Source: a bacterium
GTDB taxonomy: Bacteria > UBA8248 > JACPRG01 > G963555815
Direction of reading: 5' to 3'
NCBI GenBank assembly: GCA_965218795.1
Contig: OZ244653.1
Coordinates: forward strand, 4,384,001 to 4,448,000
DNA: 64,000 nt
Part shown: positions 3,315 to 34,901 of the stretch, one piece after another
How the letters are laid out: each line of letters starts with the position of its first letter
Position numbering within the stretch: the first letter of the stretch is position 1
Translations under genes and position numbers: made by a program
Notes under the pieces: generated by a model
Databases searched by the model: none
Told to the model about the DNA's origin: nothing
The model's input: only the letters and a program-made list of their open reading frames with translations

Positions 3315-4010
3315 ATGCCGCCCCCATCGTCCCGTTCCGCATCTCCCGCCGCCGACATCGCCGCCGCGCTCGGAGAGCGCGCCGAGGCCGTCTGCCGGCG
3401 TTATCTGCCGCAGGGCCGCAAGCAGGGCCGGTACTGGGTCGCCGGCGATCTCGAAGGCACTCGCGGCCGCTCGCTCTTCGTCCGCCTGCACGGTCCCGGC
3501 ACCCCCGGCAAGTGGACCGACGCCTCTGGCGGCGTTGCCGCGCCATCGGCGGCACCCATGCCGAGGCCTATCTCCGCGCCCGCGGACTCGCGCGCTGCCG
3601 GTTCCCGGCATTGCGCTTCCATCCCGAGCTTCGCTATCGCGAAGGCTCTTCCCTGCGCCGTTTTCCGGCGCTGGTCGCCGCCGTGACTGGCGACGACGGT
3701 GCTGTCGATCGTCACCGCGGCGCCCGGGGTCATTTCGGCCGCCGCGCTCTCGGCCGGAAGCCTCGGCGCCTTCGTGCCGCCTGCCGGGCTCAAACGGCTC
3801 GTCATCGCCCGCGACAACGATTCCGAGGGCGAACGGGCCGCCCAACGCCTCGCCCGGCGCTGCGCGCGGGCGGGCGTGTCCGCCCACGTCATCGTCTCCG
3901 AATACGGCGACTTCAACGACGATCTGGTCACTCTCGGCCCCCGGGCCCTGGCCCTTCGGCTCGCCGCCCTGTTCCCCGCGCCGCTGCGGGTCAGGGAGAG
4001 GGAGGGATGA
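3315..4010 (+). pseudogene. ICE-type primase/TOPRIM protein remnant (internally deleted)
   Basis: AEAVCRRYLPQG...PGKWTD; AEAYLRARGL...ALRFHP; AALSAGSL...IARDND, split over three frames. Confidence 0.7.
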
Positions 4011-4633
4011 ACGGGGGAGGGATGAACGGATCCAAAGGAGAAAGGGAGCATGGCGCACATCGTCAATCTCAGGCATGCGCCCGCCCTGCGGGCGGCGCTC
4101 GACCGAAAACCCGATCACGGCGGGACCGTGAAGCGGGAGAGGGGCGAATGCCGCGAGGAGGGAGAGAGAGGGCCCCGGGCATCGGCAACACGGAAGGAGA
4201 GCCGAAATGCAATCCGTTACCTTGAGGAGCATCGCCCGTACGAGTCGAGGGTCCACCACGATGGCAATCTCGCCTGCGAGGTTGCGGAGCGACTCACTGG
4301 GCGGACAATCCGCCTCGTCCCCATGGGCGATCTTCCCGCCTCTAATCAAATAGAGAAATGTGTGGTATTATGACATATGTACACCCAAATCCGAGTCGAC
4401 TCGTTCGAGTCCAGAATCAATCTCAATGAGGCGTTCTCGGGATTTTCCTCTCTTGGGTTTCGATTAACGGAGGATGGCCATTCAGTTTCCTTTATTTTTG
4501 TTTGCCCACATCCGTGCCTTTGCGGGAGGTCCGAGCTCACGGCCTGAAATCCAAGTCCTTAGCACTGCATGATACCGGGGGAAGTTTATGGAGCACCCTC
4601 CTCTCCTGCCCCGGGAATAGGGTTTATCAGTTG

Positions 4634-5638
4634 TTATTCAATCGGCTTTTTGCCCAGATAAGGAATCTTGAGCTTTCCGCTCTTGATTCTGCTCTCGACT
4701 GCCCGCACTTTTTGGGCGACTTCGGGGGTGACCTTCGCGTTGAACGGGGCCAATTGTGACCCGCCGCCGGCCAATCCGACAAGATAAGTTTTCTCGACTT
4801 TCCCCTTCTTCAGGTCCAGGACAATCCGCTTCATGATCCCATGCCACACGTACATCGTGCTCGTGATCACCGTATCAGGAGCCAGCGGGTTCCAATTCAT
4901 ATAGGTCCCGATCCCCAAAATTCCTTTCTCATCCGCACCCTTGATTCCTCCTTTTCCCATTGGACCAGCGCTCGTATAGATGACGTCCACCCCTTGCTCG
5001 GCCATTGCGATGGCCGCCTCTTTCGCCTTGGTCACATCGAACCACGAGCTCACGTAGACTTCCACAACGTTGATTTTGGGGACGACGGAGCGGGCACCCA
5101 TCTTGTAAGCGTTGTGTTCGGCGATCTGGTTCGGGACAGGGTATCCACCAATCACACCGATTTTCTTCCCTTTACTCATCAGCGCGGCCAGGACCCCGGC
5201 CAAGTACACCGACTCGTGGGACTGCGCGCCGTAATTTACCAGATTAGGATGCTTCCCTGTATCGAAGAAAAAAGGCACAGCGAAGACTGTGTTCGGGAAT
5301 TGCGGTGCCAGTTTTCGAGCCGGCTCGCCGAACTCGAAACTGTGCCCAAAGATCAGGTCAAAACCCCTGACCGCCCATCGCCGCATGACCCTCTCCATTT
5401 CGGCCACTTTGACTCGCTCCTGGTAGGCCACCTCATCGACTCCGGGGTCCTCCTTGAGCTTCATGACGGCCTCATATCCCCCCTGATACCAGCCAAAGTC
5501 CTTGATGGAACCGTTGACGGCGATGGCCACACGAAACTTCTTATCCGCCGCGATTGCGGAGGTACCCAGAAGGCCCACCATCAATGTGACAGCAAGTCCA
5601 TACACGAAACTGAGTGTTAGACGCCTCGCCCTGTTCAT
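4634..5638 (-). CDS. BMP-family (nucleoside) ABC transporter substrate-binding protein
   Basis: signal peptide, DFGWYQGGY, YLAGVLAALMS, SWFDVTKAKEAA. Confidence 0.9.
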   Translation of the reverse strand: MNRARRLTLSFVYGLAVTLMVGLLGTSAIAADKKFRVAIAVNGSIKDFGWYQGGYEAVMKLKEDPGVDEVAYQERVKVAEMERVMRRWAVRGFDLIFGHSFEFGEPARKLAPQFPNTVFAVPFFFDTGKHPNLVNYGAQSHESVYLAGVLAALMSKGKKIGVIGGYPVPNQIAEHNAYKMGARSVVPKINVVEVYVSSWFDVTKAKEAAIAMAEQGVDVIYTSAGPMGKGGIKGADEKGILGIGTYMNWNPLAPDTVITSTMYVWHGIMKRIVLDLKKGKVEKTYLVGLAGGGSQLAPFNAKVTPEVAQKVRAVESRIKSGKLKIPYLGKKPIE

Positions 5639-23518: not shown

Positions 23519-24544
23519 TTACATTGCCTTGTCGCCCAGGGCGGCCTTAATGGCGGGCCACTGGGGGAGGAACCGGTTGGTGTACATGTCTCCCGTCGGA
23601 ACGCGTTTCTTCAGCTTCTGGAGCTTGGTGAGCAACTCGACGGTATTGTCCATTTTCTCGTGGTCCATGTATCCCAAGCCGTGCAGCCGGACTCCCTCGT
23701 CGAACATATACTCAGTATTGATGGCGAAGTGGTGGCGGATGATGGGCTTGCTCATCCCCGGGGCGTACTTGAGGAAGTTCTCGATGGCCTCGTCCGGGTG
23801 GAGGAGCGACCACCCAAAGGCCTCCATGACGGCCTTTACGGCATTGCGAACAAACTTGGGGTTGGACTCGATCGTGGCATCGCGGACGATGACGCCGTTG
23901 CTGTAAACTTTCACGCCCCAGTCTCCGTAGGAGAAATATCCGAGCTCCTTTCCAATCTTGGCGACCGCGATACGGAGTTGGGGTATCTCGGTGACATAGT
24001 AGAGGGCCACATCCTGCTTCCCGCTCAGGAAGGAGGGGAGGACCTGCCCATAACCGATGTTAATCCACTCGATGGTCTTATCGTCGAACCCGTTGGCGGC
24101 GGCAAAGGCCGGGAAAATGACGCGGACGGAGGTGGCTATCGGCGAGCCGATCGTAGCGCCTGCCAAGTCCTTGGGCGTCTTGTAGCCCTTATCTTTGAAG
24201 AAGACAGCGATCATGGGCGTCTTGGCGTGGATCATGGCCACTTCTTTGACCTTGACGTCGCTGTTGCCCCGCGCGTTGACCAGCGAACCGGCATCGGCGA
24301 ACCCGATAGGGGCAATCTTGCTGGCAACGTCCTTGATGGTTCTACCCGAACCGAAGCCCCGCTTGTACTCCACGTCCAGACCCACCTTCTTGTAGAAGCC
24401 CTTGTCCTGGGCTGCGAAGAAAGCCGCGTGTTTTCCATAGACGATCCAGTCCAGCAGGAAGGTGGTTTTTCCAGCGACGGCCTGCCCCGTCAGGCCCCCC
24501 GCCAAGAACAGAAATGCGGCGACGACGACCAAAAGCTTTTTCAT
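23519..24544 (-). CDS. NMT1/THI5-like ABC substrate-binding protein
   Basis: signal peptide, LDW..YGKHAAFF, GFGSG, YTNRFL. Confidence 0.9.
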   Translation of the reverse strand: MKKLLVVVAAFLFLAGGLTGQAVAGKTTFLLDWIVYGKHAAFFAAQDKGFYKKVGLDVEYKRGFGSGRTIKDVASKIAPIGFADAGSLVNARGNSDVKVKEVAMIHAKTPMIAVFFKDKGYKTPKDLAGATIGSPIATSVRVIFPAFAAANGFDDKTIEWINIGYGQVLPSFLSGKQDVALYYVTEIPQLRIAVAKIGKELGYFSYGDWGVKVYSNGVIVRDATIESNPKFVRNAVKAVMEAFGWSLLHPDEAIENFLKYAPGMSKPIIRHHFAINTEYMFDEGVRLHGLGYMDHEKMDNTVELLTKLQKLKKRVPTGDMYTNRFLPQWPAIKAALGDKAM

Positions 24545-25338
24545 GTTTGCACCCCTTTGCCGGTGAGACGGAAATCCAATCCCGGAAAACCCTCTGCCGA
24601 CCTCCCGTTGACACCTGGTTGAACGGAAGTTTCCCATTTCAAATTCAGACAGCCCTCTATTGACCACTCATTGCTGTCTAACCCGATTAGACCCCTCTTT
24701 GCCGGGGCCGTCAAGAGGCTGTCCCATTCTTAGTTGAAGGTTGAAAAAAAGAGGTGGCGGTTCACTCCTGCCGACTCGGTTAGAATTGCCCTGCCCCCTT
24801 TCAAGGGAGTCCAGTTTATAAAAGAGTATTCCTGGATTGTAGAAGGAGGCGAAGGCTGGCCAGGAAGCGGTTTACGGCCGAGCCGATCATCATCAAGCTG
24901 CGAGAGGCGGAGGTGTCCCAGTCCCAAGGGAAGACGGTAGGCCAGGAGTGTAAGCAGATCGGGGGTGACTGAGCAGACCTACGACCGGTGGCGGAAGGCG
25001 TACGGGGGTCTGAGGATGGCCCAGGCCAAGCGTCTGAAGTCCTTGGAGAAGGAGAATGGCCGGCTGAAGAAGCTGGTGGCGGGTCTGTCTGTGGACAATC
25101 AGATTCTGAAGGAAGTCTCCTCGGGAAACTTCCAGGCCCGGCGAAGAGGAGAGGAGCCGTGGTATGGGTACGAGAGCGGTTCGGACCTGAGCGAGTCTGT
25201 GAGCGTCGGGCCTGCCGCGTGCTGGGACAGGCTCGATCGACCCAACGAAGAGTCCGACAGATTTCCAAGGAAGAGGGACAATCTGGTGCTCCGGATGGTA
25301 GAACTGGCCAGTCAGTATGGCCGTGTATGGACGCCCCC

Positions 25339-25590: not shown

Positions 25591-26615
25591 TCAGACGGCC
25601 GGCGCCGGCTCCCGATAGACCGCTTTCTTCGTCATCAACGCCCAGGCGGTCCGCGCCATTCGATTCGCCAGCGCCACCGCGACCAGCATCCGCGGCTTGC
25701 GCGCCAGCATCCGAGCCAGCCATGAGCCTGCCGGCGCACCGCGCCAGGCCGCCCAACGGACCACCGCCATCGCGCCCGTGATCAACAGCCGCCTGACATC
25801 GCGCTGGCCCATCTTCGATATCTTGCCCAGCCGCGGCTTGCCTCCGGTGGAGTTCTGCCGCGGGACAAGCCCGAGCCAGGCCGAGAAGTCACGGCCGCGC
25901 CGGAAGCTTTCCATCGGCGGCGCGAAGGCCTGGATCGCCATCGCACTGATCGACCCGATCCCCGGGATGGTCATCAGACGTCTCGCCTCTTCGTCCTGGC
26001 GCGCACCCGTGTGGAGTTGCCTGTCCAACTCCCGAATCTTCTCGTTCAGGCCGGCAATCTGATCAAGCAGAACACCGCCCAGCTCGCGGACCGCCTCGGG
26101 CAGCCCCGAGCCCGGCTCTGCAAGGGCCAACGCCAGCCGGCCCACATACGCCAGTCCCTACGGAGCGATGACCCCGAACTCCGCCAAGTGGCCCCGTAGC
26201 GCGTTGATGGTCTGCGTGCGCTGGCGCACCAGCAAATCGCGCGTGCGGAACAGCATCCCGTGGGCCTGCTGGCCCTCCGTCTTCACGGCCACAAAGCGCA
26301 TGGTCGGGCGAGAGGCCGCCTCGCAGATCGCCTCCGCCTCCGCGGCGTCGTTCTTGTGACGCTTGACGAAGGGTTTCACATAGACCGGCGGCATGACTTC
26401 ACCTCATGGCCAAGCTTGCCGATCTCACGACCCCAATAGTGCGCGCTCGCACATGCCTCCATCGCAACCAGACAGCGTGGGTGCGAGGCCAGAAAGTCCA
26501 GCACTTTCCCCCTGGTCAGCTTCTTGCGGAATGCAACCGATCCGTCCGTCCGCGCACCGTGCAGTTGAAAGCCTTGTTTCGCCAAATCGATGCCGATGAT
26601 GTTCACTTGTTCCAT
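25591..26615 (-). pseudogene. IS110 recombinase (DEDD + Tnp), frameshift and internal stop
   Basis: IGIDLAK, MEAC, KNDAAEAEAI, TIPGIG, GLVPRQNSTGGK. Confidence 0.9.
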
Positions 26616-27135
26616 GGACGCTTCCTCCTTCAGGGGTTGAACACGACACCACCTTGCCACAACGTGATGCCGTCGGGAGGGGGCGTCCACCCCATCGGTA
26701 CGGCTACCGGAGGATCACGGCGATTCTTCGCCTTAGAGGGGTGGAAGGTGAACCCCATAGGGAGTGGAAAGGCTTTGGAGACAGGAAGGGCTGAAGGTCC
26801 CGTCCAGACAGCCGAAACGAAGGAGACTGTGGCTCCATGACGGGTCCTGCGTGCGCCTGAGACCGACTCATCGGAACCATGTCTGGAGCTATGCCTTCAT
26901 GCATGAGCGTACCCAAAAGGGGAGGGCTTTCCGGCTGCTGACCATTTGGATGCGTACAGCCGGGAATGTTGTTCCATTGATGCCCCAAGGCAGATGAATC
27001 ACCAGGATGTGCTGGAAAGGACCCGACGAAATCTCCAGGTTGATGGAGAATCTAGGTAAGACTAGCCGGGCGTGTTAACGAAAAAGCGAATGAACGCTTT
27101 CGTCGCTTCTCTTCTTCGAATACCATCGTCGGGCT

Positions 27136-27893
27136 TCAACCTTTTCCGTCATTGCCCAGGACGTCACAAGACGCCAATAACTGTTTTGCAATAGCTTCCG
27201 CCGGCACTCGGACCCATTCCTGGTGTACAAACGTGAATGCGAGCATATGTACGAGAGTGAACAAGCAGCCGGCCCATGTGGGCTTATCGATAGCCTGGAG
27301 CATGATGTAGCGTCGCCCTTCCATGAGACGGCTATGGCAGCCACTATGGCTGCAATGACCAAACCGTCGACAAGAAGTGCAAGCGGTTTGAGCGCCCATA
27401 TATTTCGCCGAAAGCCGTAGTTGACGTTCTCCTCGAAGATGAGCCGGAACCTCTCGCGATCCGTCACTTGAGCTAGCAGCCAAGCCGTGGCACTCTCGTA
27501 TCCTTCGTCGGCCTTTGTTGGAGACCTCTTTTCGTCTTGCGGCGTCGCCAGCTTCAGTTGGGGAACGTTGCGCTCCAAAAATGCCCGATACCGATCCTTT
27601 GCCGCCGTCGGGATGCGCGCATCACGATGCCGTAGCATCACTACGGACGGCTTCCCGCCCCACGCTTGAAACAGGTTCGGTTCAAGTGCTTTCCCTCGAT
27701 CCCGCCCAAACTGCGTCAACCACGTTGCGCCACCGCAATAAACCACCAATCCGATGACGGCCGCCCACGTTGACTGAAATTCTGGAACAAGAAGCGCGAA
27801 GACAACCAAGATGGGCAGCAGGGTCAGAAGCGCTGGCTGAAGCCGGGCCTTCCGATTGTAGGGGTCGCTGATGAGTGTTTCGATGTTGAGCAT
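27136..27893 (-). pseudogene. multi-pass membrane protein of the defence operon, frameshift near 27310
   Basis: N-terminal TM pair, WGGKPS, FEENVNYGFRRN, further TM segments; true C-terminus QLLASCDVL is in the 27136 frame. Confidence 0.7.
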
Positions 27894-30194
27894 TTAGGCG
27901 CTCCCAACAGCAGCGTCTGTTGCATCAGCAAGAAGCGCATGAATAGCGGCCGGCGTTTGGATCAACAGAATTGCCGGCGTCAGGCGTGCTACCGATACTG
28001 CGGTTGCCGTCGAGCGATCCATCGGGGATGGGTCACTGGGAGAAAGATGACTGTGCCAAGTGCCAAGGCAATAGAGCGACCAACCGCTTGACTCCGAATA
28101 GGCTTTTAGACGTTGGCGAAGCCCTTTCGTCCCGAGGACAAACTCACTCGCGGAGCGGGTACTATCCTCAGGCGCTTCCAGTACATCAACCACATGGAAG
28201 GTGTGGGACACTTCTGACAATCGTCCAACGAGCACGCCGCCGGTCTCGACCTGGGGCCGGTTCGCAGTTTCCTCCTGGATTTTTGCCAGTGCACGCGAGT
28301 GAATGCGAACGCGCCAGGCTTCTCCATTGATTGTGCCAACTTCGGTCACCGGAGGGACTTTGTGTGCGCGCCACTTGAGACCAATCTCGCGTTCGGACAG
28401 CTGACCTAAAAGGACTTCACCGCTGTCCCCAGGGAGGCCGTCGCGTTGCTTTCCCAACAGGTATTCGGACATGCCGGCCGCGAAAAGCGAAAGCCGTCCA
28501 TCGGACATGGTCATCGTCAGGGAGCCGCAGCCTTGGCCGAGAGCCTGCCGGGATGCCGTGTCATCGGCTCCAAATATGAGTGACGCCATAGTCGCGTCCT
28601 CCCGAATGAGGGCGTAGCACTCTGCCATGAGGTCGCCGGTGTTAGGGTTGCGCTCAGGTCCCTCGACAGTGACCATCCCGACGGCGCCGCCAGCGAATAG
28701 GGATGTTTCGATCACGCGGGCAGGCAGCCGGTTATTTGAGGCAAGCGCTTCTCGGACAACAAGCGATGCGGTTATGTTTACAACTGCCCACGACCGCTTC
28801 GACCAGGGACGGCTGACCTTGCATTTAGACTCCAAGATTCTCACGGCGTTCGCAAGGATCGGCGTTGCTTCCTGTTCAAGTCCATGTAATGCCCCGCACA
28901 GCGACCGGGCTTTGGCATCCATCCAGAGGAGCTGCATATCCCCCGTCGTGGGGATGAGCGCATGCCGCGCCGCGTTGTGCGGCGTCATCGACGACTGGTC
29001 GATGACAACCTCGGGGCCGTTCCCGGCGCGCGCGAGATGGAGCGCCAACTTGGATCCCAGACTATCGGCACCAATCAGTGTCCACCGTGGCCGTTCGGAA
29101 GTTGCCGCGTGGCCTGCCATCTGGGCGAGGAGGGCGCGGGTTATCGCATTGCGATGTGCGGCCGGTCGCACTGGTGTCGCGCCATCATCAGAAGACAAGT
29201 CGGGCGAGTAAATGTCCATGACATACGGGCACAACTCGATGGGACTCTGGCTGCCGATAACCTTGTAAGGTCGACGCGCCAAAAGCACCACGGCGAGCGG
29301 GAATGGCCCCATCTTGGAAACTCTGGATAGGCATCGCTTGAGCCACTTGAGCCCGTTATCGAGTTCAGCGGCACAGCCATAGAGCTTAGCGCGATCTCGA
29401 AGCTCATCGACATTGGTTACGGCTTCGGGAAGGTATGTATCGCAGACAATCAACTTGCCAGACGGCTGTTTTCCAGGCCACACGACCATTGCCAGCGACC
29501 GGCCGTGTCGTAGTTGGGCGTCCTTGCCAACCGCCGCTTCTCTGAAGATACTCGGTACGGTTTTGCGGTTGATTTGAGGGATTACGGTTTTAATCTGGCC
29601 GTGAATGGCGCCCAATGCGCCGTTAGTGACAAGTCGCAAGTAATCGAGTTCAAAGAAACTGTATCCGCCGTCACGGTTCACCAATCCGCGCAGCCCTTCG
29701 GCGTCGGCGATGAGGTCATCTTCGAAGCTATCACGCCGAACAGGTTCCCAACCTTGTTTCGGGTCGATGAGTGTGCCCATGGCTGCACGTTCAAGCCAAA
29801 CTGCGGTCTGATTTAGGATGCCGGCTAACCCTTCCAGCTGGAGCAGTTCGGCCAGGTTGCCATCGTAGAGGCAGGGCACGGGCCGCCCATCCGTCAACCA
29901 CGGCTGCATGTGTGGCAGATTCCGGTTGAAGTCAGGGCGCAGCGATACTTCGGGTGGGTCAAGCGGGAATCCACTCGGAAAGTCGAAGCGCACGACCTCC
30001 TGAAGCCTGACACCCGATGGACTCGAGCCCTGCCGCTTCCAGCGGCTTGGTAGGTGCACGTCGAACGTCACGTCCACCGCGGTTGTCCCAGTCACTTTGT
30101 CAAAGGATGGAATCCCGACCAGAGATACGGCAGGATGGTCGGACACCAGAGCCAGCGCTCGCAAGATCGTTTTACTGGGCCGGACGTCCGCCAT
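27894..30194 (-). CDS. E2-E1(ThiF)-JAB fusion protein (Cap2/Cap3-like)
   Basis: E2 PH...VPCLY; E1 LIGADSLGS, HNAARH, GQGCGS; JAB ETGG...WHSH...PSPMD. Confidence 0.9.
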   Translation of the reverse strand: MADVRPSKTILRALALVSDHPAVSLVGIPSFDKVTGTTAVDVTFDVHLPSRWKRQGSSPSGVRLQEVVRFDFPSGFPLDPPEVSLRPDFNRNLPHMQPWLTDGRPVPCLYDGNLAELLQLEGLAGILNQTAVWLERAAMGTLIDPKQGWEPVRRDSFEDDLIADAEGLRGLVNRDGGYSFFELDYLRLVTNGALGAIHGQIKTVIPQINRKTVPSIFREAAVGKDAQLRHGRSLAMVVWPGKQPSGKLIVCDTYLPEAVTNVDELRDRAKLYGCAAELDNGLKWLKRCLSRVSKMGPFPLAVVLLARRPYKVIGSQSPIELCPYVMDIYSPDLSSDDGATPVRPAAHRNAITRALLAQMAGHAATSERPRWTLIGADSLGSKLALHLARAGNGPEVVIDQSSMTPHNAARHALIPTTGDMQLLWMDAKARSLCGALHGLEQEATPILANAVRILESKCKVSRPWSKRSWAVVNITASLVVREALASNNRLPARVIETSLFAGGAVGMVTVEGPERNPNTGDLMAECYALIREDATMASLIFGADDTASRQALGQGCGSLTMTMSDGRLSLFAAGMSEYLLGKQRDGLPGDSGEVLLGQLSEREIGLKWRAHKVPPVTEVGTINGEAWRVRIHSRALAKIQEETANRPQVETGGVLVGRLSEVSHTFHVVDVLEAPEDSTRSASEFVLGTKGLRQRLKAYSESSGWSLYCLGTWHSHLSPSDPSPMDRSTATAVSVARLTPAILLIQTPAAIHALLADATDAAVGSA

Positions 30195-30202
30195 TGATCT
30201 TC

Positions 30203-31366
30203 TTAGCCGTGAGGTAGAGGCTGGCGACCGATCACACCGGGCCCCACCCCAGCAGCCGCCGTCATCAGCTTCGTTTTCAGTCGCGGGCCGTTGTCTCCCA
30301 TTTCGAACTCCATAACGTCAGGAGACTTCTCGGACGGATACTCGCCGACGCACTTGTAAGGTGCCGCTCACGCCGTTCGCAATCTCTACATACTCGCGCT
30401 TCGCGCGGATGCAGGGGGGATCGTTATTATCGTCCCTGATCGGATTGCTGCTGGCGACAAGGGTCGCGCCCTCGCGAGCTTGAGAAAGAGCGTTACGCGC
30501 ATCCTCACAAATCTCAGCATCTTCGCCCTTGTCGCTCCAGCTATCGTAGGACAGGCTGCGCCACGAACAGTGATGTGGCGTCTGCAAAATATCGAATGAC
30601 AGCCAGTCGGCCCGTCGGTGGTGGCGCCGCCAGAGCTTCTCTCAAATCGCGACTTCCGCATCCCCGCCGGTCAAGAACCGGCAGCTGTCCACCGTCTGAT
30701 CGCTGGCCAACGTAAACTGAAGGATCGTGCTGGACTGATTCTTGGAGAGCGTGTCTTCCTCGTCGTCGTCGCCTTTGGGGAGCGGTCCCAGCAGCCGTGC
30801 CGTCATCGACTGGTCGTCCCGGCCGTTGACGCGCGAGAAGGTCTCGTCCACGCGAATGAGTATGGCACCCAGGTCATCGGTTTTGCCGTTCTCGTCTTCT
30901 CCGAGGATGAGGATACGGTCACCATCGCCAACCACTCCCCCGGTATCGCGAAACTTCTGAACCCGGCGACGGGCCTCGGTGTTGAATGCCTTTGCATCAT
31001 CGCAGAGAACGTGGTTGCGCGACGCACGCCGAAACACCATTGGCGAGGACCACACCTCGCGAACGAAGATTTTGTTTGCCTTCTCGGACCATTCGTCAGG
31101 CGGCCCGAGGTGAAAATGATTCCGAAGCCCGGTGCAGTGGTCCTTGTCGGGATGGCTGAGGAGCAGAACGCGTCCACATAGAGTCGCCCCTCGGAGTCGC
31201 GCTCGAGCCGTTCTCGGAGAGCGGTGGCCACATCGGGCGCGTCTTCGTCGGAATCGTCAGCGGAACTCCGAATATTGAGATCGATCAGGATGTTGCGGCC
31301 GTTTTCGGTCTTGACGAGCGTCATGTCGCCGTTGCCAACCGGGAAAAATGACAGAGTGCCAGTCAT
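30203..31366 (-). pseudogene. metallo-beta-lactamase-fold hydrolase (ComEC-like) with two frameshifts and one nonsense codon
   Basis: FFPVGNGD, SHPDKDH, TGGD, PHHCS; reconstructed C-terminus ...AAAGVGPGVIGRQPLPHG*. Confidence 0.85.
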
Positions 31367-31449
31367 AGTATGGAATCTCCAAGATTCAAGTTGATTTCAT
31401 CTACCTCGTCTCTATTTATGTTCGATATTCACACTGTAAAGGCAATAAT

Positions 31450-31478
31450 TTGACATATAATGTGTGATCGGTCATAGT
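31450..31478 (+). promoter_or_regulatory. sigma70-like promoter in the divergent intergenic region
   Basis: TTGACA-17nt-CATAGT. Confidence 0.45.
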
Positions 31479-31537
31479 CAGATGTATTTAGGCACGGGGG
31501 AAAAGGCCCTCTGTCAGAGATCAAGGAGATATCAGTC

Positions 31538-32776
31538 ATGGACCCGACCAAGCTTGGACGTCGACTACGATTAGCCCGCGAAGCCCGGGGGCTCAGCCAG
31601 CAGGCGGCGGCCAATGCAATCAGTGCGCCACGGACTGCAATCACTCAGATGGAGGCAGGAAACCGTTCCGTCTCGACGCTGGAGCTGACGCAGCTCGTCG
31701 AACTCTATCGCCGCCCCGTGACTTACTTTCTTGAAGAGGCCGTTCATGCGGAGGAAGAGGACGTTCTTGTTGCTTTGCATCGGGTGGCCCCTGGCCTGGA
31801 ACGGGACCCAGGTGTCCGCGAACAAGTGGACCGATGCCTCAGTCTATGTCGCGAAGGCGTAACTCTGGCAACCGTCTTGGGTCTGAGCCCTCGATCCGGA
31901 CCCCCGGCGTATGAGATGCGCATTCCTCGCACGGCGGGTGAGGCAATCACCCAAGGAGAGCAGGTGGCCCATGATGAAAGACACCGCCTCAGCATTGGAG
32001 TTTCACCTATTCCTGACGTGTCAGAGCTGCTCAGTGCGCAAGGGATTTGGGCATCCGGTATCGAACTACCCAATCAAATGTCGGGTCTGTTCATGCGCCA
32101 CCCTTCGATTGCACTGGCGGTCGTTGTAAACGCGTCCCATCCGCGTGGTCGGAAGCGTTTTTCCTATGCTCATGAGTATGCGCACGCCCTGTTGGACAGA
32201 GAGCACAACATAACGATTTCCAGCATTGACAATTCGGCGGAACTTATGGAGAAGCGGGCAAACGCATTTGCCGCGGCCTTTCTTATGCCGAGAGACGGTG
32301 TGTATGAGTTTCTGAGAAGCTTGGACAAGGGGCTTCCAAGCCGTCAGGAGCAAACAATCTTTGATGTCGCGAGTGGCGGGCAGATCGAAGCCGAATCTCG
32401 TACGGCGCCCCGTTCTCAGCGAATCACCTACAAAGATGTAGCACTCCTTGCACACCATTTCGGCGTAAGCTATCAGGCTGCGCTGTATAGGCTAAAGAGT
32501 CTTGGGCACATTTCCCATCCAGAGTCTCACGATCTCCTGGAACAGGACGACTTCGGACGCCAGTATCTGGATATGCTGAGGATGTCCGACGATGTTGAAG
32601 TGCAAGAACAGCGGGAATACTGGGATCGTGAACTGCGCAGCGAAATCGCTCATCTTGCTATCGAAGCTTACCGGCGTGAGGAAATTTCCCGTGGACGCCT
32701 ACTGGAACTGAGTAAGAGCCTCGGCATTCCGGGAGAAACCCTCCTTGAACTGGCAGAAGTGGCCCGCGGGGAATGA
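31538..32776 (+). CDS. XRE-HTH fused to ImmA/IrrE (M78) Zn peptidase
   Basis: RLRLAREARGLSQ HTH; RFSYAHEYAH; EKRANAFAAAFLMP. Confidence 0.92.
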   Translation: MDPTKLGRRLRLAREARGLSQQAAANAISAPRTAITQMEAGNRSVSTLELTQLVELYRRPVTYFLEEAVHAEEEDVLVALHRVAPGLERDPGVREQVDRCLSLCREGVTLATVLGLSPRSGPPAYEMRIPRTAGEAITQGEQVAHDERHRLSIGVSPIPDVSELLSAQGIWASGIELPNQMSGLFMRHPSIALAVVVNASHPRGRKRFSYAHEYAHALLDREHNITISSIDNSAELMEKRANAFAAAFLMPRDGVYEFLRSLDKGLPSRQEQTIFDVASGGQIEAESRTAPRSQRITYKDVALLAHHFGVSYQAALYRLKSLGHISHPESHDLLEQDDFGRQYLDMLRMSDDVEVQEQREYWDRELRSEIAHLAIEAYRREEISRGRLLELSKSLGIPGETLLELAEVARGE

Positions 32777-32785
32777 GCCGACGGC

Positions 32786-33307
32786 ATGGTCCATGCGAAC
32801 CCATCAATCATAGTTACGGATACTTCCGTTCTTGTGAACTTTCTTCGGATTGATCGAATGGACCTGATTGCCGGCCACTCCCATGACTTTATTGCCACGG
32901 ATCACGTTGCCGATGAGATTACGGATCACTATCTCCAGATCAACGAGCGCGCTTTGCGGCCGCGCTGGTATGCCGGCACACTCCAACAGGTCAGTATCAC
33001 AGACCCAACGGAAATGGCATTATTGGGGAGTCTTGCCGCTTTGGGCCGACTGGGTGTGGGTGAGTGTTCCGCAATTGCCTTGGCCGCACATCAGGGACAT
33101 GTCTTGGCCATAGATGACCGAGTTGCTTCAAACCAAGCCCGCCGCGTCAGCCGGAATATCCAAATTCTTACAACCCAGGACCTCATGGTTTCGATGATCC
33201 GCCAAAACTTGTTGGATGTCCCGCAAGCAGATGCGATCAAGGACGAATGGACCAATCACCATCGGTTCCGTCTTACAGTCCAAAGCTTTGCGTATCTGGT
33301 TCCGTGA
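32786..33307 (+). CDS. PIN-domain protein
   Basis: VTDTSVLVNF, LGVGECSAIALA, LAIDD. Confidence 0.85.
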   Translation: MVHANPSIIVTDTSVLVNFLRIDRMDLIAGHSHDFIATDHVADEITDHYLQINERALRPRWYAGTLQQVSITDPTEMALLGSLAALGRLGVGECSAIALAAHQGHVLAIDDRVASNQARRVSRNIQILTTQDLMVSMIRQNLLDVPQADAIKDEWTNHHRFRLTVQSFAYLVP

Positions 33308-33309
33308 AG

Positions 33310-33603
33310 ACAACGGCAGACAGCCTTCGCATCGGCCATTTCCTTCTCCAGCTCCTTCAGCCGTTTCGCCTGATCCAGCTTCAGTCCGCCATACTCCTTC
33401 CGCCAGCGGTAATCAGTCTGGGTGTGGATGCCGGCTTCCTTGCAGGCTTGGGGAGCCGTCTTCCCGTTTGCGATCTGCACTTCGATCTGCCGCAGCAAGG
33501 TCACAATCTGCTCTGCTTTGTACTTTCGGATCGGCATGTCCAGCTTCCTCCTTCGTGAGATCCTCTCTCACTTCCGCTGGTTCAAAAAACGCCGGGCAGG
33601 TCA
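33310..33603 (-). mobile_element. IS3-family left end and orfA fragment
   Basis: TGACCTGCCCGGCG end; YRWRKEYGGLKLDQAKRLKELEKE. Confidence 0.8.
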
Positions 33604-33914
33604 CCTGCTTAGCCTTCCATGCTCCTCCCGTGGCCGCATCACCACCCCTGGCAATGAGTTGATCATTACCAAGATGATGCCGACCGCTTGAGACCGCCTC
33701 GAGGAAGTCGCAATCAGAATTGGTATACGCATTGACCGACGAGGACAAGGGAGATCCAAGAAACAGCATGCACCACATGAAAAATAAATCTGTCCCCTTT
33801 TCTGTTTCCATCCGTGGTAAAATAGGATGCTTTGACGTTTCATGAGGGCAGCAGGATGGCAAAAAATGGTCATCTGGGAAATCCCAGTGAAATGGTTTCT
33901 TGGAGGGGAGAACG

Positions 33915-34901
33915 ATGAAATGTTTGGCAATTGCAACGGTCTGGGCCCTCGTCCTGGGATGGACGGCGACGCAGATCTCGGCGGCGGATAAGGTGCTCTT
34001 CGTTCTGGACTGGGTCCAATATGGTTCTCACGTCGGCTATTACAACGCCCTGGAGGGGGGATTCTTCAAGAAGGCCGGGATGGACGTCACGATCCAGCGG
34101 GGCTACGGCTCGGGGGATACGATTAAGCGGATAGGGTCGAGGAAGGGCGACTTTGGATTTGCTGATGCCGGGACCCTGGTGGTCGCCCGCAGCAGGGGCA
34201 CGAAGGTCAAGAGCATTGGCGTCCTGTACAACCTGGCCCCTCACACGGCCTTCGCCCTGAAGAGTTCGGGGATCAGAACCGTAAAGGACCTCTCTGGAAG
34301 GCGTTATGGCGATGATGCGGGTGGGTCCACCTTCATCCTCTTTCCCGCGTTGGCGGCGCTCCATGGCGTGAAAGATACGAAGTTCACGAACCTCGCTCCC
34401 GCCGCCAAGGATCCCGCCCTGCTCGCCAAAAAGGTGGATTTCACCTGTACGTATTTGGACCGCCTCCCCAGCTTGCAGGCCGCAGCGGCGACGATAAACG
34501 ACGAGATCGTCGCGCTACAGTGGGCCGCCAACGGGCTGGATTTCCATGGAAACGGCATCATCGTCCACGACGACACTATCCGGGACAAACCGGATCTGGT
34601 GGGCCGCTTCGTTAACGCGGTGTTCAAGGGAGTGGCCGAGGCCATCAGGAACCGCGATCTGGCCGTCCAGAGGTTCGTGAAAAACTTCCCGGTCGCGGAT
34701 CCCAGCATGATTAACAAGCAGTGGGGGGTCCTCATTTCCCTGGCCTATAGCGACGAGACAAAGAAGATCGGTCTGGGCGGGCTGAGCGAGAAGAAGATGA
34801 ACGGGACCATCGATCTGATCACCAAGTACATGAAACTGCCGTCCAGGGCGCGTGTGACCGACATTTACGCGCCTCAATTCTTGAAGAAGATCCTTCCCTG
34901 A
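33915..34901 (+). CDS. NMT1/THI5-like ABC substrate-binding protein
   Basis: signal peptide, LDW, GYGSG, FGFAD. Confidence 0.9.
   Translation: MKCLAIATVWALVLGWTATQISAADKVLFVLDWVQYGSHVGYYNALEGGFFKKAGMDVTIQRGYGSGDTIKRIGSRKGDFGFADAGTLVVARSRGTKVKSIGVLYNLAPHTAFALKSSGIRTVKDLSGRRYGDDAGGSTFILFPALAALHGVKDTKFTNLAPAAKDPALLAKKVDFTCTYLDRLPSLQAAAATINDEIVALQWAANGLDFHGNGIIVHDDTIRDKPDLVGRFVNAVFKGVAEAIRNRDLAVQRFVKNFPVADPSMINKQWGVLISLAYSDETKKIGLGGLSEKKMNGTIDLITKYMKLPSRARVTDIYAPQFLKKILP

Follow-up and report, generated by a model that had tools for sequence, protein, structure and literature searches.

The 6A-MBL system, built on a metallo-beta-lactamase (MBL)-fold enzyme and a fused E2-E1-JAB protein, was reportedly named and tested as an anti-phage system by van den Berg et al. 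in 2024. The locus described here lies in a 64,000-nucleotide stretch of a bacterial genome (contig OZ244653.1, positions 4,384,001 to 4,448,000; hereafter the window), and it is very probably a recently inactivated copy of 6A-MBL in an island flanked by insertion sequences (IS), with a portable control cassette of repressor, protease and PIN nuclease placed divergently upstream. In most respects the locus is ordinary, being a broken copy of an already named system with its usual membrane partner, beside a portable switch. The operon corresponds to type 6a of Iyer, Burroughs and Aravind 2006 (PMC1779556), whose entry for this type gives 'usually' two genes. NCBIfam holds two models only for the system, NF058523 ('6A-MBL_cap2_3') and NF058524, and the gene for the membrane partner falls outside both.

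Parts of the remaining architecture are also in print. A legend in Lau et al. 2022 (bioRxiv 10.1101/2022.04.27.489752) lists for a '6a' system a CapP-like protein, a CapH-like protein, a hypothetical protein, a metallohydrolase, an E2-E1-JAB protein and a second hypothetical protein; as far as this legend goes, the membrane partner of 6A-MBL is already drawn in print, as a 'hypothetical protein'. Also named in that legend is a DISARM operon in which a vapC-like gene adjoins a CapH-CapP fusion. The CapH and CapP proteins described there, an Xre helix-turn-helix (HTH) protein and an M78 peptidase encoded divergently from a defence operon, resemble the regulator of the window; however, the latter is a single fused protein that has a UPF0175-like domain at its C-terminus and a PIN nuclease of the DUF3368 family as its partner. 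Three-component modules of HTH, COG2856 peptidase and PIN were predicted in Makarova 2009 (PMC2701414) and Matelska 2017 (PMC5499597), and the account in Matelska 2017 includes COG2405/DUF3368 among them and has UPF0175 occurring only with COG2405. Such toxin-antitoxin modules are like the window pair, in which 9 nt separate a fused HTH-peptidase gene from the COG2405/DUF3368 PIN gene behind it. They differ in that the UPF0175-like part in the window forms the regulator's own tail instead of a separate antitoxin as in UPF0175-COG2405 pairs, and in that the window-type cassette also fronts defence operons.

The ligase part of the locus is paralleled by Type II CBASS (a signalling system against phages that is based on cyclic oligonucleotides). 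That system has a homologous E2-E1 ligase and a homologous JAB peptidase, the same logic of conjugating the C-terminus of a partner enzyme, and a variable effector slot often filled by membrane proteins. Type II CBASS differs in having a CD-NTase (cGAS/DncV-like nucleotidyltransferase), absent at the window locus, and in having Cap2 and Cap3 unfused. In addition, the partner enzyme in the window, which by analogy would be the conjugated one, has a hydrolase fold, so that no nucleotide signal can be made out. A Corbett-lab preprint says in a single line that the ligase of 'Type II CBASS/Pycsar/MBL' conjugates its partner enzyme via the C-terminus. The Ledvina preprint does not cover MBL operons, and a literature search on the Cap2/MBL mechanism yielded nothing further. 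The genes of the locus and the region between the two divergent groups are as follows.

27136..27893, minus strand: gene of a membrane protein with four transmembrane (TM) helices, the family A partner of 6A-MBL; frameshifted (tblastn, alignment).
27894..30194, minus strand: E2-E1-JAB fusion (6A-MBL cap2_3), 766 aa; frame open, with G377D (NF058523, Pfam).
30203..31366, minus strand: ComEC-like MBL-fold enzyme of 6A-MBL; pseudogene with three lesions (NF058524).
31367..31537, no strand: divergent intergenic region of 171 bp, presumed to be a shared promoter/operator.
31538..32776, plus strand: fused Xre-HTH and M78 (ImmA/IrrE, CapH-CapP-like) regulator with a C-terminal UPF0175-like domain, 412 aa (Pfam, PADLOC).
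32786..33307, plus strand: PIN-like nuclease of the DUF3368/COG2405 family, 173 aa, presumed toxin partner of the regulator (annotation of relatives).

A preliminary description of this DNA, made from the letters and their open reading frames (ORFs), had proposed a five-gene defence unit with the PIN and HTH-peptidase pair divergent from the MBL side, and all five frames were found as it had placed them. Its naming of the core also holds. The fusion matches the Pfam domains Prok-E2_A (8e-23), Prok-JAB (3e-6) and, weakly, ThiF, and it passes NF058523 with 578 bits at a cut-off of 320. In an alignment of 20 homologues, that is, the window sequence and 19 others, the E2 cysteine C108 (VPC), the cysteine C556 of the E1 crossover loop (GQGCGS) and the JAB residues E650 (E-T-G-G), H714/H716 (WHSH) and S723/D726 are invariant; therefore, the Cys and JAB motifs quoted in the preliminary description are real and are the catalytic ones. 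The MBL gene adjoins the fusion on its upstream side and scores 326.7 bits on NF058524 (cut-off 220) across one internal TGA; its homologue in a related locus with an intact gene (L003) scores 455 bits on the same model. Gene pair, gene order, E2-E1-JAB order and catalytic residues are thus those of 6A-MBL and both models are passed, but the window copy is a pseudogenised remnant. As had been noted, no CD-NTase is found near the locus: the sole SMODS match of a genome-wide search lies at 1.595 Mb, ~2.8 Mb from the window (4.384-4.448 Mb). The system is sparsely distributed among relatives. When 40 relatives were searched with the fusion, one had a whole copy (67% identity, residues 10-758) and one further genome had the JAB part only (E 2.7e-9). 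Two of 51 genomes of the phylum, the source genome included, exceed the curated cut-off, and two more (G014, G004) hold fragments only.

Three of the five genes depart from intact relatives. When the intact L003 MBL protein was aligned on the window by tblastn, it fell into three pieces: residues 1-65 match in one frame, residues 66-338 in another and residues 337-387 in the first frame again. The second segment carries a stop where every homologue has Trp, and the third ends in the conserved ...QPLPHG. The lesions are 2 extra nt near 31167-31170, a TGG>TGA change at 30642-30644 and 1 extra nt near 30357, and no second MBL copy was found in the source genome. The TM gene changes frame near 27302 by a 1-nt deletion, after residue ~194-195, and its ORF at 27075-27893 encodes 272 aa; the conserved C-terminus runs on in another frame to about 27142, and the intact L003 homologue gives two high-scoring segment pairs in different frames (tblastn). 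The fusion frame is open, and its second glycine in the E1 GxGxxG motif is replaced (G377D), the window having GADSLG where 19 of 19 others have G(A/C)GS(L/V)G. No other position of the window fusion departs from a column that is constant across the remaining 19 sequences. Since such departures number 0 to 9 in the other sequences, one is not unusual as a count, and G377D is suspect because of its position in the motif; judged from the sequence, the E1 ATP site is probably dead. The regulator and PIN genes look intact.

Every MBL and TM lesion has an unbroken natural counterpart, because variants lacking them occur in other sequencing runs. Run X6 contains a ~99% identical variant with 25 substitutions and 4 indels over a 3312-nt contig. 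Its C at 30642 restores TGG, and the extra bases of the window are absent from it, both the 2 nt at 31169 and the 1 nt at 30357. One extra C stands behind 27302 in X6 as well as in X1, at the frame change of the TM gene; X1 covers a small share of the stretch and was used solely for this base. The copy is broken and therefore cannot work as the five-gene system that had been proposed: its MBL gene is in three frame segments with a TGA, its TM gene is frameshifted and its fusion carries G377D.

What the MBL enzyme looked like before decay can be judged from the L003 protein, whose predicted structure (pLDDT 81, pTM 0.86) is disordered in the last 21 residues. Its best structural match is the C-terminal MBL domain of ComEC (PDB 9ic4, E 7.7e-12, TM-score 0.70 on the target); behind it rank structures of phosphocholine esterase and of tRNase-Z-like and CPSF73/RNase J nucleases. 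The H-x-D-x-D-H motif (SHPDKDH) is common to the MBL enzyme and the ComEC domain. A fold search was needed to reveal this likeness, the MBL sequence profile reaching only E 0.076 against the Protein Data Bank, again to a ComEC domain. In ComEC, the MBL domain is fused to a membrane channel. The 6A-MBL enzyme differs from it in this weak sequence similarity and in being free-standing, with a tail that by analogy may be conjugatable. The MBL C-terminus is His-Gly in 18 of 21 homologues and is followed by 1-4 extra residues in the other three, which fits the conjugation of a partner enzyme via its C-terminus that is proposed by analogy.

Although it lies outside the curated models, the membrane gene is a genuine partner of 6A-MBL and an almost constant one. 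Its ATG (27893) abuts the fusion stop, as the preliminary description had it, and the segment FEENVNYGFRRN sits in the most conserved block of the family. One genome per species was scanned, yielding 28 loci with fusion relatives other than the window, the entries L004 and L050 being the same contig and counted once. Excluding five stumps (L011, L019, L024, L027, L028) and L022, which ends right after the fusion, 22 loci are informative, and 21 of them have a TM gene 3' of the fusion on the same strand, starting within ~150 nt. The TM proteins of these loci fall into five families.

Family A (that of the window): 12 loci, about 250 aa.
Family B: 3 loci, 174-201 aa.
Family C: 3 loci, 211-217 aa.
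Family D: 2 loci, 219-230 aa.
Family E: 1 locus, 150 aa.

Co-occurrence was also seen in an independent sample of 400 gammaproteobacterial genomes searched with the curated model. Seven passed, giving six new loci; four of the six have an MBL gene, and a family C gene with four TM helices is found in the cluster in all four, lying downstream in two of them, upstream in another and divergently in the last. Among plasmids, for which 4 of 35 records were inspected, three loci have a TM gene, two of family A after the fusion and one of family C followed by a second MBL-fold gene; the fourth has a second MBL-like gene and no TM gene. A second, different MBL-fold gene is also often seen 3' of the fusion in the surveyed loci, beside the TM gene or in its slot (L045:6152-7078, L052:7668-8585, L054:7511-8590, L053:6790-7860). 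No kinship among families A, B, C and D was found by BLAST or hhalign (probability <3%), but the alignments are shallow (2-12 sequences) and a distant kinship is therefore possible. Family A comprises 508 clusters in a large protein collection, none of which has a Pfam domain or a name, and the TM protein has no match in Pfam, NCBIfam or PADLOC. In its AlphaFold model (pLDDT 87.8), a helical cytoplasmic domain is framed by membrane helices, two at the N-terminus and two at the C-terminus. No solved relative was found; the best Foldseek match was ExbB (E 0.18), and the best VIA wide match (Z 6.5) led to generic helical bundles, which points neither to a new fold nor to a function. The two-gene definitions in the curated models thus omit a near-constant membrane gene that is swapped among families without detectable similarity, and such swapping is the mark of an effector slot.

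The TM protein might alternatively be not an effector but a membrane anchor or conjugation target that holds a ComEC-like nuclease at the cell envelope, a possibility that we consider somewhat unlikely. The structural likeness of the MBL enzyme to a domain joined to a membrane channel speaks for it, as does one viral contig (L136:3872-5702) on which an MBL-fold gene is followed directly by a family A TM gene and by a HEPN gene, with no E2-E1-JAB gene. However, five TM families without detectable similarity occupy the slot, as would be expected of a swappable output module more than of a dedicated docking partner. On three viral contigs family A comes after other enzymes, on two of them after an E1-JAB protein and on L136 after the MBL-fold protein without a ligase; L136 is a possible ligase-free form of the system. 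The three operon genes of intact relatives encode a ComEC-like MBL enzyme with a floppy His-Gly tail, cap2_3 and a small protein with four TM helices drawn from interchangeable families.

The divergent pair had been taken for a further component of the system, and seen from the 6A-MBL side it often is one. Pairs of HTH-M78 regulator and PIN genes lie divergently upstream in 12 of the 28 other 6A-MBL loci, as 11 whole fused regulators and one remnant. A PIN-like gene follows the regulator in all 12 (with a transposase gene between them in L006, and partial in L001). M78 genes of the CapP kind occur in five of the 28 loci, in two of these next to a separate HTH gene, and WYL repressors occur in three. 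Where the regulator is whole (11 loci), its start is ~70-250 bp from the MBL start; in the window the distance is 171 bp. The pairs form three subfamilies in which regulator and PIN change together, with identities of 25-32% between regulators and 14-25% between PINs. L014 has two HTH-M78 regulator genes, the second (3890-5011) placed immediately after the PIN gene of the first.

When looked at from the regulator side, in 79 metagenome loci with regulator relatives, the pair proves to be portable. A whole 6A-MBL system adjoins the relative in one of the 79 (L113), with a trace at a contig edge in L100, and a PIN gene is present in 37 of the 69 relatives with room downstream. The operon behind which the closest relative of the window regulator (L055, 84% identity) stands divergently is Type III CBASS-like and contains SMODS, HORMA and AAA genes. 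The 57 divergent ORFs at 24 loci comprise CBASS-type genes at eight loci, ubiquitin-like genes (Bub-type or ThiF) at five, SNF2 helicases at two, DUF2188 and HATPase at one each, other domains at two and nothing recognisable at five. The HTH-M78 and PIN pair is therefore a portable control cassette of a published kind, not specific to 6A-MBL. Of the larger architecture that had been envisaged, the co-occurrence of membrane gene and pair with the core is borne out; however, it is partly in print, in the legend of Lau et al. 2022 and as HTH-COG2856-PIN modules, the pair is non-specific, and the copy is broken.

The regulator matches Peptidase_M78 (6.5e-19) and HTH_31 (3.8e-10) in Pfam and RmrA in PADLOC (4e-25, residues 6-256), as well as capP and capH, and its HEXXH motif (H212, E213, H216) is invariant. 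A helical C-terminal domain is common to all regulators of this kind and matches UPF0175 with E 0.05 in the window and 5e-6 in L010 and L020. The PIN gene follows on the same strand after 9 nt. Its protein has 219 relatives annotated PF11848 (DUF3368) in the large collection; those listed have 147-190 aa, mostly 170-178, and nearly all cover >90%, and since the window gene matches them in length and cover, it is whole. The acidic residues D12, E44, E93 and D111 are invariant. Against PADLOC the PIN protein matches PDC-S70 (3e-11), and no RmrT model matched.

In a predicted complex of regulator residues 335-412 with the PIN protein, the score was 0.70, against 0.01 for the best control. Of 157 solved complexes 116 came up to this mark, as did 2 of 215 mismatched pairs, counts that are rough because our own alignments were supplied. 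Three runs agree in at least 95% of contacts, with a partner pLDDT of 84. The contacts join regulator residues 381-390 to PIN residues 13-14, 44, 87-93 and 110-114, beside D12, E44, E93 and D111. As a new lead, the C-terminal domain of the regulator is thus predicted by the model to bind the PIN active site; if this is true, induction of the operon would be tied to release of the toxin.

This contact, together with the RmrA match of the regulator and the match of the PIN protein to candidate PDC-S70, also suits a different explanation, namely that the pair is a self-standing three-component toxin-antitoxin or Rosmer-like module, which shares islands with 6A-MBL and does not regulate it. Such modules were predicted as a toxin-antitoxin system in the cited accounts of 2009 and 2017, and a whole 6A-MBL next door is found for only one of the 79 relatives. 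We regard this explanation as rather unlikely, since beside 6A-MBL the pair is always divergent and close to the MBL start, three pair subfamilies occupy the same position beside closely related cores, and relatives are arranged head-to-head to the leading gene of operons of the CBASS, Bub-like and SNF2 types, which is the behaviour published for CapH/CapP in the preprint cited. The self-standing and the regulatory readings are compatible, not exclusive. In the 171-bp spacer, sigma-70-like sites occur on the plus strand at 31422-31478; the search for an operator palindrome in the spacer gave none that is convincing, with two weak, distant inverted repeats only.

With the pair taken as a control cassette, a working scheme for intact relatives can be outlined. 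By analogy with Cap2/Cap3 of Type II CBASS, the E1 domain would adenylate the C-terminal glycine of the MBL protein, the MBL tail would then move via E1 C556 and E2 C108, and the enzyme, conjugated to a target, would thereby be primed. The JAB domain would trim or reverse the linkage, and the membrane protein would serve as output or anchoring module. The regulator would act as a fused repressor and Zn-peptidase of the CapH/CapP kind, whose C-terminal domain may also restrain the DUF3368 PIN nuclease; upon a DNA-damage signal the peptidase would cut the repressor, turning the operon on and freeing the PIN protein.

A more speculative extension, which we offer as doubtful, combines two ideas. 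In the first, the fused regulator is the antitoxin of the DUF3368 PIN within a portable two-armed alarm module: a conserved C-terminal 'EISRG' helix of the regulator would plug the PIN active site, and one damage-triggered proteolysis would both derepress the fronted operon (6A-MBL, CBASS, Bub-like or SNF2) and release an RNase. In the second, in parallel, the MBL and four-TM genes would be the ancestral two-gene core, to which E2-E1-JAB was added as a regulator; the ligase-free state would be as on the one viral contig, in a parallel to Type I versus Type II CBASS. For the source genome the locus matters little, because the system is dead there; the comparison sharpens the points on the membrane slot, on remnants, and on regulator and PIN in intact relatives.

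That the locus is functional, its frameshifts and stop being sequencing or assembly errors or being read through, is highly improbable: the source genome is one 5.17-Mb contig, likely a long-read assembly of the type where indels are common, but contigs of runs X2 and X3, from one study, match window positions 27000-31600 with 0 differences at a depth of ~17 and so repeat all lesions, none of the window indels is inside a long homopolymer, one lesion is a base substitution to TGA, the nearby long genes (509, 466 and 883 aa) are unbroken, and the near-identical lesion-free variant of X6 comes from another study. Read-through by another genetic code was dropped, as the lesions are mainly indels and the neighbours read normally under table 11.

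Several points nevertheless weigh against the reading of a recently inactivated 6A-MBL copy with its membrane partner and control cassette. X2 and X3 may be the window's own sample and therefore exclude an assembler slip, not a peculiarity of the strain. The depth of the X6 contig is 3.2, and at 30285 this contig itself lacks 1 nt, so an intact allele in X6 is best called likely; in addition, 3 of its 25 substitutions are unlisted, which precludes a reading of G377D there. As for the membrane partner, the TM calls were made by a simple hydropathy rule, L001 has no TM gene, and in two gammaproteobacterial loci (L048, L049) the fusion is over the cut-off with no MBL or TM gene detectable within several kb. 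The PIN gene had no match in direct Pfam scans. Meanwhile, the steps of the mechanism are drawn by analogy with Cap2/Cap3, and the putative conjugation of the MBL tail from the Cap2 analogy and the one-line preprint statement.

Broken 6A-MBL loci are common in the survey. Five of the 28 retain only a fusion stump (the five listed above), and other loci have a stop (L009) or a frame change (L017) in the fusion or a split MBL gene (L047). The frequency of remnants suggests that the system is costly or quickly lost. Between the window and X6, the listed differences (28039-31345) number 18 in ~1.16 kb of the MBL pseudogene and 4 in ~2.1 kb of the fusion, a density ~8 times higher in the pseudogene, which may reflect relaxed selection or recombination. 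In X2 and X3, window positions 27000-27789, where the TM gene has its 3' part, and the DNA past it stand on a contig of their own, with about three times the depth of the remainder (~50 versus 17), and other sequence joins at 27789; the samples of these runs seem to contain this stretch in more than one setting. The fusion in L048 and L049 is adjoined by a TetR-like gene.

The island itself is a stretch of ~9 kb (about 24.7-33.9 kb) that holds the locus and is enclosed by two genes for NMT1-like substrate-binding proteins, with transposase fragments on either flank of the locus.

23519-24667, minus strand: NMT1/THI5-like substrate-binding-protein gene, bracketing the island.
25591..26145, minus strand: IS110-family transposase fragment, on the island flank opposite the IS3 fragment (Pfam Transposase_20, 6.5e-23).
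33256..33537, minus strand: IS3-family transposase OrfA-like fragment, island flank, overlapping the end of the PIN gene (Pfam HTH_Tnp_1, 4.5e-11).
33900-34901, plus strand: NMT1/THI5-like substrate-binding-protein gene, bracketing the island.

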